Origin: Escherichia coli
Lineage (GTDB): Bacteria; Pseudomonadota; Gammaproteobacteria; Enterobacterales; Enterobacteriaceae
Strand: one strand, 5' to 3'
Length of the DNA stretch: 64,000 nt
Assembly (NCBI RefSeq): GCF_024700885.2
Contig: NZ_CP117016.1
Shown: positions 56,285-57,319 of the stretch, piece after piece
Layout of the letters: every line of letters starts with the position of its first letter
Numbering within the stretch: the stretch's first letter is position 1
Position numbers and translations under genes: made by a program
Notes under the pieces: model-generated
Seen by the model: the letters and a program-made list of their open reading frames with translations, nothing else
Told to the model about the DNA's origin: nothing
The model's database searches: none

Positions 56285-57319
56285 TACTTTCCAAACCTGT
56301 AATTTTTACAGGTGCATTCAGTTTCCTTAGTAAACCGGAGGTAAATAAGATACGTAGTACATATCAATAAAGGTTAAACGAGATTAAGTTTAATTATTTT
56401 CGATTGGGCTTAAATTTATGTTTTTTTCCCGATGAGTGTCAATATGTGAACGGAAAAGGAATTCAATGGTTAAGTCAATATTTAGAAAAACTGAAAATAT
56501 TGCTTTTTTGATAAGAAGAAAAAGACATTTAGTTTCATAAGGTTATTGGCAATATAACGTTCATTTCTTACTTGCATTTTATATTGGTCAGGAACTTTGC
56601 CCTGAAGTGTTAGGAATAGTCTTAATGCGCTGTGTGATGGACTAGTAAAAAAACAAGTTTTAAGGGTAAGGGATAGAATATAAAACTATTATGAGCTGTC
56701 ATTGAAGATGATTTGCCAATCAGTAAGATATTTTAATGGATTAACATGCCGCACAAAATGGTTATAGGTGTTCATTACAATAAGTGATGGAAAATTGAAC
56801 GGGTATAAGTACGTCATCTGTTCGGTAAGTCCCCCAAGAGCCAAATTAAGTGAAGTTAAACGAAGGCTGCCAGCTGTCACAGGAACGATGGCCTCTTTGT
56901 CAGGGCACTGCATTCAGTCATCTGTGCGCATTACTCTAACTGGCACTCGAACGTCAGCGACGGGGTTACCGGTGGATCAGGCTGTTCCTGTGGCGTAAAC
57001 GTTTTTATGTTAGTACCAACAGATTTACCACATTTATCATCTTAACAGTTTGAGTGAAAATGCAGGCTGCGCCGCAAAGGGAGGAGACTGATGGCGTGTT
57101 CAGTCTAAAAGAGGGTTGATGCCAGCATACAGGGGCGAAGCTGGTCAACACGTCAACATTAATATAATGGAATATTCGGAGAGAAACGTCAGGCAGTTGA
57201 CCTTAAATGAACAGGAAGATACATCCCCAGGAAAATTAATGCTGGTGTAATAAATACACCAACATTAATCCGGTCTGATTATTAATCAGACAAATATCGT
57301 TAATTCGTCGAATTTTAAA

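Follow-up and report, generated by a model that had tools for sequence, protein, structure and literature searches.

The 1,035-bp gap between ecpR and ykgO, at positions 56285-57319 of the window (the whole 64,000-nucleotide stretch of Escherichia coli DNA that was analysed), is best read as composed of three parts that differ in their history, a reading to which we give a probability of about 0.85: a control module next to ecpR, a filler found only in Escherichia, and the 3' end of the ykgMO operon. The gap extends from the GTG codon of ecpR (56284, minus strand) to the stop codon of ykgO/rpmJ2 (57320, minus strand), exactly as delimited in the preliminary description of this DNA, and it would measure 1,083 bp if ecpR started at the ATG at 56236 chosen by PGAP. 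That description had called the region unusually long, and indeed no two neighbouring intact genes lie farther apart in the 50 kb of annotation examined (the next longest gaps measure 823, 472 and 406 bp). It had also called the region AT-rich, which applied to positions 56285-56800 (30.8% GC against 50% for the window, an AT content far above the genome average over more than 300 bp) but not to positions 56801-57100 (48.7% GC, about the genome average). The segment 57101-57319 had 37.9% GC, and the whole gap 37.5%. According to RefSeq, the genes on the minus strand follow the order ecpC, ecpB, ecpA, ecpR, ykgO and ykgM, and ykgL, encoded on the plus strand, separates ecpR from ykgO. The 1,035-bp query was 100% identical to E. 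coli strain 1190 (NZ_CP023386), and the gap region was found in 5,067 out of 5,426 complete E. coli genomes.

We detected a sole strong sigma-70 match on the ecpR strand, TTGACA-N18-TAAATT (56413-56442, minus strand), which agrees with the consensus at 10 out of 12 positions: the -35 element lies at 56442-56437 and, after an 18-nt spacer, the -10 element at 56418-56413. The start predicted from it falls on an A of the minus strand at 56405, 8 nt past the -10 hexamer and 121 nt from the GTG. It fits to the base the published transcription start of ecpR, placed 121 bp upstream of the start codon in EPEC/EHEC (Martinez-Santos 2012, as cited in PMC10038029). The TTGAC of the -35 element was retained in at least 10 out of 11 ecp loci (Escherichia, Klebsiella, Enterobacter, Pantoea and paralogous clusters), TTGACAC and the spacer motif GAAAAA in at least 8 out of 9 orthologous loci, and the -10 TAAATT was visible in all the orthologous loci. 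In strain EDL933, the start-site signal and the mRNA of ecpR were reported to be salt-induced (Cappable-seq and RT-qPCR); the supplements of the EDL933 Cappable-seq study gave no coordinate for the ecpR start site.

The annotated coding sequence of ecpR (matA) occupies 55694-56236 on the minus strand and encodes 180 amino acids from the ATG at 56236 (PGAP), while the K-12 annotation extends it to the GTG at 56284 (196 amino acids). The ATG and the upstream GGACTATGAGG, which includes a GAGG Shine-Dalgarno sequence, were kept across genera. In the cross-genus alignment the stretch between ATG and GTG was not conserved as coding; thus, the ATG is the likelier start and probably the one that is used. 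With this start, the 5' untranslated region of ecpR (56237-56405, minus strand, counted from the published start site) would be 169 nt long, against 121 nt to the GTG. Its predicted fold had no excess stability compared with shuffled sequences (z = -1.37). An apparent 2-nt frameshift at the ecpR start in one K. pneumoniae locus (L019) was discarded, since several neighbouring genes were fragmented in the same assembly, which is probably rich in indel errors.

We compared the region with the ecp loci of Escherichia L003 (EcpR 81% identical), K. pneumoniae, Enterobacter mori, the K. oxytoca group, K. indica and Pantoea, together with two paralogous second ecp clusters. The gap upstream of ecpR was long in every locus (approximately 680-1,100 bp), and each contained a tract of 500-600 bp with 17-36% GC directly upstream of the start codon, followed by a jump to more than 50% GC. 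By blastn, homology with K. pneumoniae extended to position 56869 (72% over 785 bp), and E. mori shared sequence up to 56664, the K. oxytoca group up to about 56760-56795; beyond 56869 we found no nucleotide homology outside Escherichia in the loci compared. We thus delimit the AT-rich tract that accompanies the operon by these homology limits, with a full extent of 56237-56869, and the control region (56237 to about 56800/56870) has 31% GC. The -35 and -10 elements, the two upstream boxes described below and the Shine-Dalgarno sequence were conserved in 9-11 ecp loci, even where EcpR was only 57% identical, and the core motifs recurred in Pantoea. In our reading, the ecpR-proximal 570-630 bp or so regulate the ecpRABCDE (matABCDEF) common-pilus operon in cis, as a module that travels with the operon between genera.

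Further upstream of the promoter we found a putative activating site (56587-56624, minus strand), centred about -185 to -219 from the ecpR start site. It comprises the motif TTCCT-N17-TTCCT (56590-56616), the only copy in the 64 kb, where 0.07 copies were expected by chance. We take its two TTCCT boxes to be the EcpR boxes of Martinez-Santos 2012. The distal TTCCT sits within TAAGACTATTCCTA (56611-56624), which matches the RcsAB box TaAGaatatTCctA at 13 out of 14 positions (consensus as quoted in PMC3950696) and was the only match with one mismatch in the 64 kb (0.27 matches expected at up to two mismatches). The TCCTG of the activating site was retained in at least 10 out of 11 loci, and the pattern T.AG...A.TC.TAA was invariant by eye in the aligned ecp loci. 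Reviews report that a MatA-RcsB heterodimer activates mat, that H-NS represses it, and that acid, cold and acetate induce it. The near-perfect RcsAB box fits this reported activation and repression and, from its sequence, may be the MatA-RcsB site.

Between the activating site and the promoter (56474-56584, minus strand), further blocks were kept in at least 8 out of 9 orthologous loci: ATATAA (56584-56579), TAAGAA (56570-56565), CAATAACCTTATGAAA (56548-56533) and ATATTGAC (56481-56474). The pattern CAATAAC..ATGAAA was also listed among the conserved blocks of the upstream module. The blocks in 56474-56584 are candidate sites for IHF, H-NS or other proteins. A consensus scan found no good IHF match in the expected place within this interval, and scans of the promoter-proximal part with motifs for IHF, CRP, CpxR and high-affinity H-NS binding found no convincing site; in particular, the high-affinity H-NS motif TCGATAAATT had no match there at up to two mismatches. 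Finally, the block TTTTGTGCGGC (56748-56758, minus strand), at about -345 from the start site, showed no difference among the two E. coli promoter classes, Escherichia L003, K. pneumoniae, Enterobacter mori and the K. oxytoca group, while its flanks had diverged. A further regulator of the common-pilus operon could have its operator there.

The promoter-proximal part overlaps the equivalent of a K-12 'promoter island', 310529_398 (ecpR/ykgL; PMC3661553, Table 1 and footnotes), which we placed at 56253-56649 of the window by inference, from the +776 bp offset between U00096.2 and U00096.3 and the alignment with K-12. This island bound H-NS in all the compiled ChIP studies and overlaps a predicted genomic island (PMC3661553). 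The density of promoter-like sites was not raised: a simple promoter-consensus scan, used here in place of the PlatProm program on which the published definition of promoter islands is based, found 2 sites against 3.7 ± 2.0 in dinucleotide shuffles. As these are fewer than in composition-matched shuffles, the 'island' property was not reproduced by such a crude scan.

The H-NS binding, the position of the start site and the dependence on EcpR, IHF and RcsB are taken from the literature, and with them the following mechanism can be proposed. RNA polymerase with sigma-70 would start at about 56405 from TTGACA-N18-TAAATT, and H-NS would coat the AT-rich tract and silence the ecp promoter. EcpR/MatA and RcsB, acting at the TTCCT and RcsAB-like boxes about 185-219 bp upstream and helped by IHF, would relieve the silencing; because EcpR/MatA would thus relieve the silencing of its own promoter, a positive feedback loop would result. 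The preliminary description had spoken of a regulatory landscape. This term suits the ecpR-proximal half, with its conserved core promoter, its boxes of EcpR/RcsB type and the published H-NS binding and start site. The same description had named a lack of transcripts and binding sites as what would speak against it; the published ChIP and start-site data are both positive.

The locus is that of the ecp/mat promoter already described (Martinez-Santos et al. 2012 J Bacteriol 194:5020; Lehti et al. 2012 J Bacteriol 194:3475; Lehti et al. 2013 Mol Microbiol 87:1200; Pannen et al. 2016 JBC 291:2357), with which it shares the start 121 bp upstream, the two far-upstream TTCCT boxes, the AT-rich H-NS-bound tract and the two E. 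coli promoter lineages. The proximal promoter module is therefore known from the literature, and nothing in it differs in kind from the described promoter; what differs is that the strain studied here joins a class I promoter segment to class II ecpR and ykgMO alleles. Like the K-12 promoter islands (Shavkunov/Ozoline group; PMC3661553), the region is AT-rich, has a K-12 equivalent bound by H-NS and adjoins genes predicted to be horizontally acquired; unlike them, it holds a bona fide conserved and regulated promoter rather than only abortive promoter-like sites, and it had no excess of such sites over shuffles in the simple consensus scan. The 13/14 match of TAAGACTATTCCTA to TaAGaatatTCctA, with its TTCCT half corresponding to the RcsB half-site, resembles the RcsAB box and the sites of RcsB heterodimers (Wehland & Bernhard 2000; BglJ-RcsB, PMC3950696), and the ecp target is repressed by H-NS as are the RcsB-heterodimer targets bgl and leuO. 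The putative RcsAB-like site, about 210 bp upstream of the start, is however much farther away than typical class I activator positions. Other H-NS-silenced promoters, fimbrial and xenogeneic (fim, pap, csgD, bgl and leuO, for example), resemble it in that AT-rich DNA extends far upstream, that a dedicated activator acts with IHF to relieve the silencing, and that temperature, pH and osmolarity govern expression. In contrast to promoters of the fim/pap type, there is no evident invertible element or Dam/Lrp phase switch, and no long inverted repeats flank the ecp promoter.

Beyond the module, the Escherichia-specific spacer (56870-57059) has about genome-average GC content. It differed from L003 at 30% of sites, against 32% at the 4-fold degenerate sites of the flanking genes (ecpR, ykgO and ykgM), and across the distal part 30-36% of the aligned sites differed, with 60 gap columns in the ykgL part. 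This comparison, which for the interval of about 56870-57230 is based on one outgroup (L003) and approximately 125 four-fold sites, gave no evidence of constraint, and we infer that this interval is functionless. The approximately 360 bp beyond the module would thus be Escherichia-specific filler in nearly neutral evolution, in which ORFs, ykgL included, arise and vanish between lineages; these ORFs are most likely not functional genes. A 76-codon ORF (56768-56998, plus strand) was not conserved: it is frameshifted in K-12 and L003, and its only protein matches were 7 E. coli clusters. We also considered a decayed gene in the distal part and rejected it, since the products of four ORFs gave nothing above noise in Pfam and NCBIfam and a search of 5.8 billion proteins recovered only Escherichia orphans. 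In total, 14 ORFs of at least 20 codons were tested for integrity in 6 other Escherichia sequences, and a single one, of 34 codons (56436-56540, plus strand), was intact in all 6; it was rejected as coding because it coincides in part with the conserved -35 element and upstream blocks, most of its substitutions are non-synonymous, and stops interrupt it in Klebsiella and Pantoea. None of the ORFs thus makes a convincing protein-coding gene. The preliminary description, which had called the region non-coding with only unconvincing ORFs, was essentially right on this point, though it had overlooked the annotated ykgL (57060-57285, plus strand), frameshifted in this strain.

Three other readings of the gap were weighed against the composite one. 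The whole 1 kb might be a long transcribed leader of ecpR, as the preliminary description had implied; all that speaks for this is that the gap is long and holds no intact gene. The published start, 121 bp from the start codon and coinciding with a strong promoter conserved across genera, leaves a 5' untranslated region of 121-169 nt instead of 1 kb, so that some 900 bp of the gap are not transcribed as ecpR leader. Moreover, the sequence upstream of about 56870 is absent from other ecp operons, and the distal 450 bp or so are Escherichia-specific and diverge at about the synonymous rate. We regard a leader of this length as extremely improbable. It is also unlikely, although to a lesser degree, that the K-12 annotation is right in placing a genuine small protein, YkgL (b0295, 75 amino acids), in the distal part, in which case there would be two short intergenic regions and not one gap. 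PGAP names the gene in most genomes, the 75-codon frame is intact and nearly identical in sequence in the three class I strains checked, and an RNA-seq study lists ykgL-ykgO as a convergent excludon (PMC12288877), which implies transcription across ykgL. In the present strain, however, PGAP flags the gene as frameshifted: relative to K-12, two 1-bp deletions lead to a stop after 19 codons. A different frameshift was found in the B2-type strains sampled (CFT073, EC31 and E2348/69), an altered form of 63 amino acids in O157 and FCI48, and the divergent Escherichia L003 has lost the start codon and carries indels of 10 and 31 nt. The frame has therefore been disrupted in at least three independent ways. 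All the 113 homologous clusters with a source name came from Escherichia, with lengths of 42-103 amino acids; a search of 5.8 billion proteins found no homologue outside Escherichia, and ykgL matched no family in Pfam or NCBIfam. In addition, the 3' third of ykgL is the complement of the probable ykgMO terminator hairpin. Given that ykgL overlaps this hairpin on the opposite strand, the published excludon may be just the 3' untranslated region of ykgMO. A function restricted to some lineages is conceivable, since the frame is intact in the K-12-like strains sampled and RNA-seq transcription overlaps ykgO, but ykgL is best treated as a doubtful orphan ORF, here a frameshifted pseudogene, that overlaps the probable ykgMO terminator.

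The third part of the composite is the 3' untranslated region of ykgMO (57229-57319, minus strand), which forms three hairpins. The last one has a stem of 15-17 bp (arms at 57269-57255 and 57249-57235) with 4 G-C pairs, begins 51 nt past the ykgO stop and is followed by AUUUUCC. It was recovered as inverted repeat I1 in the repeat search, and both E. coli classes retain it, with a change from U.G to U-A between them. This hairpin is probably the terminator of the ykgMO operon; its U-run is only 4 long, and the simple terminator scan did not report it. The RNA downstream of ykgO (57330-57200, minus strand) had a minimum free energy of -39.4 kcal/mol (z = -4.69), and none of the 200 shuffles was as stable. 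In the composite reading, the last 90 bp or so of the gap would hold the structured 3' end of ykgMO, a Zur-regulated operon in convergent orientation, together with its terminator. The third of the other readings is a hidden small regulatory RNA, which the preliminary description had raised; it would be either independent, in the GC-normal middle part, or processed from the 3' untranslated region of ykgMO under zinc limitation. The strong structure of that 3' region would suit a small RNA, as would a second terminator-like hairpin (57076-57061, minus strand), the short conserved blocks at 57178-57195 and about 57027-57045, and the effect of Hfq on matA expression in EPEC. Conserved runs of this length are, by our estimate, about as frequent as expected by chance, and the middle part diverges at a neutral rate with many indels and folded like the shuffles on both strands (z = 0.00 and 0.01). 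With a permissive E-value, the Rfam scan of 55500-58500 returned only a chance folP match (E = 0.59, 20 bits against a gathering score of 99). Nor are any candidates listed under ykgK, ykgL, ykgO or ecpR in a deep-sequencing study of E. coli small RNAs and its supplements; the candidate given there as antisense to the ykgM promoter lies outside the gap. With neither the middle part nor the ecpR leader folding beyond chance, the only strong structure is that of the ykgMO 3' end, and we consider a hidden small RNA improbable, to about the same degree as a functional YkgL. The repeat search recovered the ykgMO hairpins only, with no repeats of the invertible-element type.

We also examined the variation of the control region among E. 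coli genomes. The regulatory core (56406-56800) was sharply bimodal in 5,003 records: 2,813 had at least 98.0% identity and 2,185 had 90-95%, with no values between 98.0% and 92.2% in the spread listing. The bimodality matches a phylogroup-linked polymorphism of the mat promoter which Lehti et al. reportedly described in 2013, and whose two classes are said to differ in expression. The divergence between classes in the core (about 9%) was similar to that at the 4-fold sites between K-12 and the flanking genes of the window (8%), and no excess is claimed. Being bimodal over some 5,000 genomes and able to recombine, the promoter haplotype classes are relevant to the prediction of ECP expression from genotype. 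The switch of EcpR/MatA between motility and adhesion, which is under control here, is already well described, and otherwise the region matters little beyond annotation hygiene.

We scored 74 sites at which three class I strains and four class II strains carry different fixed alleles. The alleles of the window belonged to class II within ecpR (55714-56125, with one exception), to class I in 56271-57086 (excepting five sites and one unique allele at 56830) and again to class II in 57163-57452. As the K-12-type (class I) segment lies between ecpR and ykgMO alleles of the CFT073/O157 type (class II), the window is a recombinant, and it is possible that the ecp control region of this lineage was replaced by homologous recombination. 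If the promoter classes differ in expression, fimbrial expression could be transferred as a cassette of about 0.9 kb, independently of the structural genes. Both this possible promoter swap and a possible, undescribed operator at TTTTGTGCGGC would go beyond the known literature; they are tentative suggestions, which we think considerably less probable than not. The exact 2,033-bp haplotype was present in 24 out of 5,083 genomes, including O166:H15 and isolates from poultry and water.

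Judged by its alleles, the ecpR-ykgMO segment of the window (55714-57452) is recombinant. Both ecpR, the regulator gene of the ecp common-pilus operon, and the neighbouring ykgMO operon carry class II (CFT073/O157-type) alleles, and 56271 to 57086 is a class I (K-12-type) segment. The exact ecpR-ykgMO haplotype of the window was present in 24 out of 5,083 complete genomes, and its carriers include chicken, water and O166:H15 isolates.

At about -345 relative to the ecp transcription start site, the minus strand upstream of ecpR holds a block, TTTTGTGCGGC (56748-56758), whose sequence does not differ between Escherichia, K. 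pneumoniae, Enterobacter mori and the K. oxytoca group, whereas the sequence on either side of it has diverged. Annotations disagree on the start of ecpR itself, which is placed at a GTG in K-12 (56284; 196 aa) and at an ATG by PGAP (56236; 180 aa). The ATG and the GAGG 5' of it were kept across genera in the alignment, and the 16 additional codons of the GTG form showed no conservation in the same cross-genus alignment.

In some Klebsiella-type genomes (locus L010 of K. oxytoca, and L022), the first ecp cluster has a second, ecp-like one in tandem with it. This second cluster encodes a separate EcpR paralogue (57-61% identity) and has its own AT-rich upstream region, in which the -35, TTCCT and TAAG..TTCCTAA boxes are shared with the first. 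EcpR of K. pneumoniae (L019, GCA_900451585.1, an assembly apparently rich in indel errors) was 92% identical to that of the window, compared with 81% for the divergent Escherichia locus L003, and the Enterobacter mori copy of ecp (L020, CP071064.1), on a record of 213 kb, has a transposase-like gene as its neighbour; the closer K. pneumoniae EcpR and the setting of the E. mori copy may each point to horizontal transfer of the operon.

Directly upstream of ykgM, a perfect palindrome, GGTTATGTTATAACATAACC (57734-57753), looks like the Zur operator of ykgMO. The ykgM promoter carrying it is also the position of ECS017, a candidate antisense RNA in the literature. Just past ykgM lies the small membrane protein gene ykgR (58088-58189), and about 19 kb away the RefSeq annotation has another copy of ykgR, a fragment truncated at its N-terminus (~38792-38860) that adjoins a truncated LysR-family gene. 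This arrangement suggests a past duplication or rearrangement.

A P4-like satellite prophage (~25830-34700), with integrase, Icd-like, TOPRIM/DUF927 primase, polarity suppression protein and ogr/Delta genes, is integrated at the tRNA-Thr gene adjoining proA. The prophage carries a retron as cargo (retron region ~34699-37409), for which RefSeq annotates an effector (~35522-36490) and an St85-family reverse transcriptase (~36477-37409); the adjoining unannotated gap of 823 bp (~34699-35521) could contain the retron non-coding RNA. Finally, two further sequences matched the RcsAB box with 2 mismatches each, namely TAAGAATAATCCTC (47624-47637), in the divergent yagU/paoA intergenic region, and the palindromic TAAGAATATTATTA (23169-23182).
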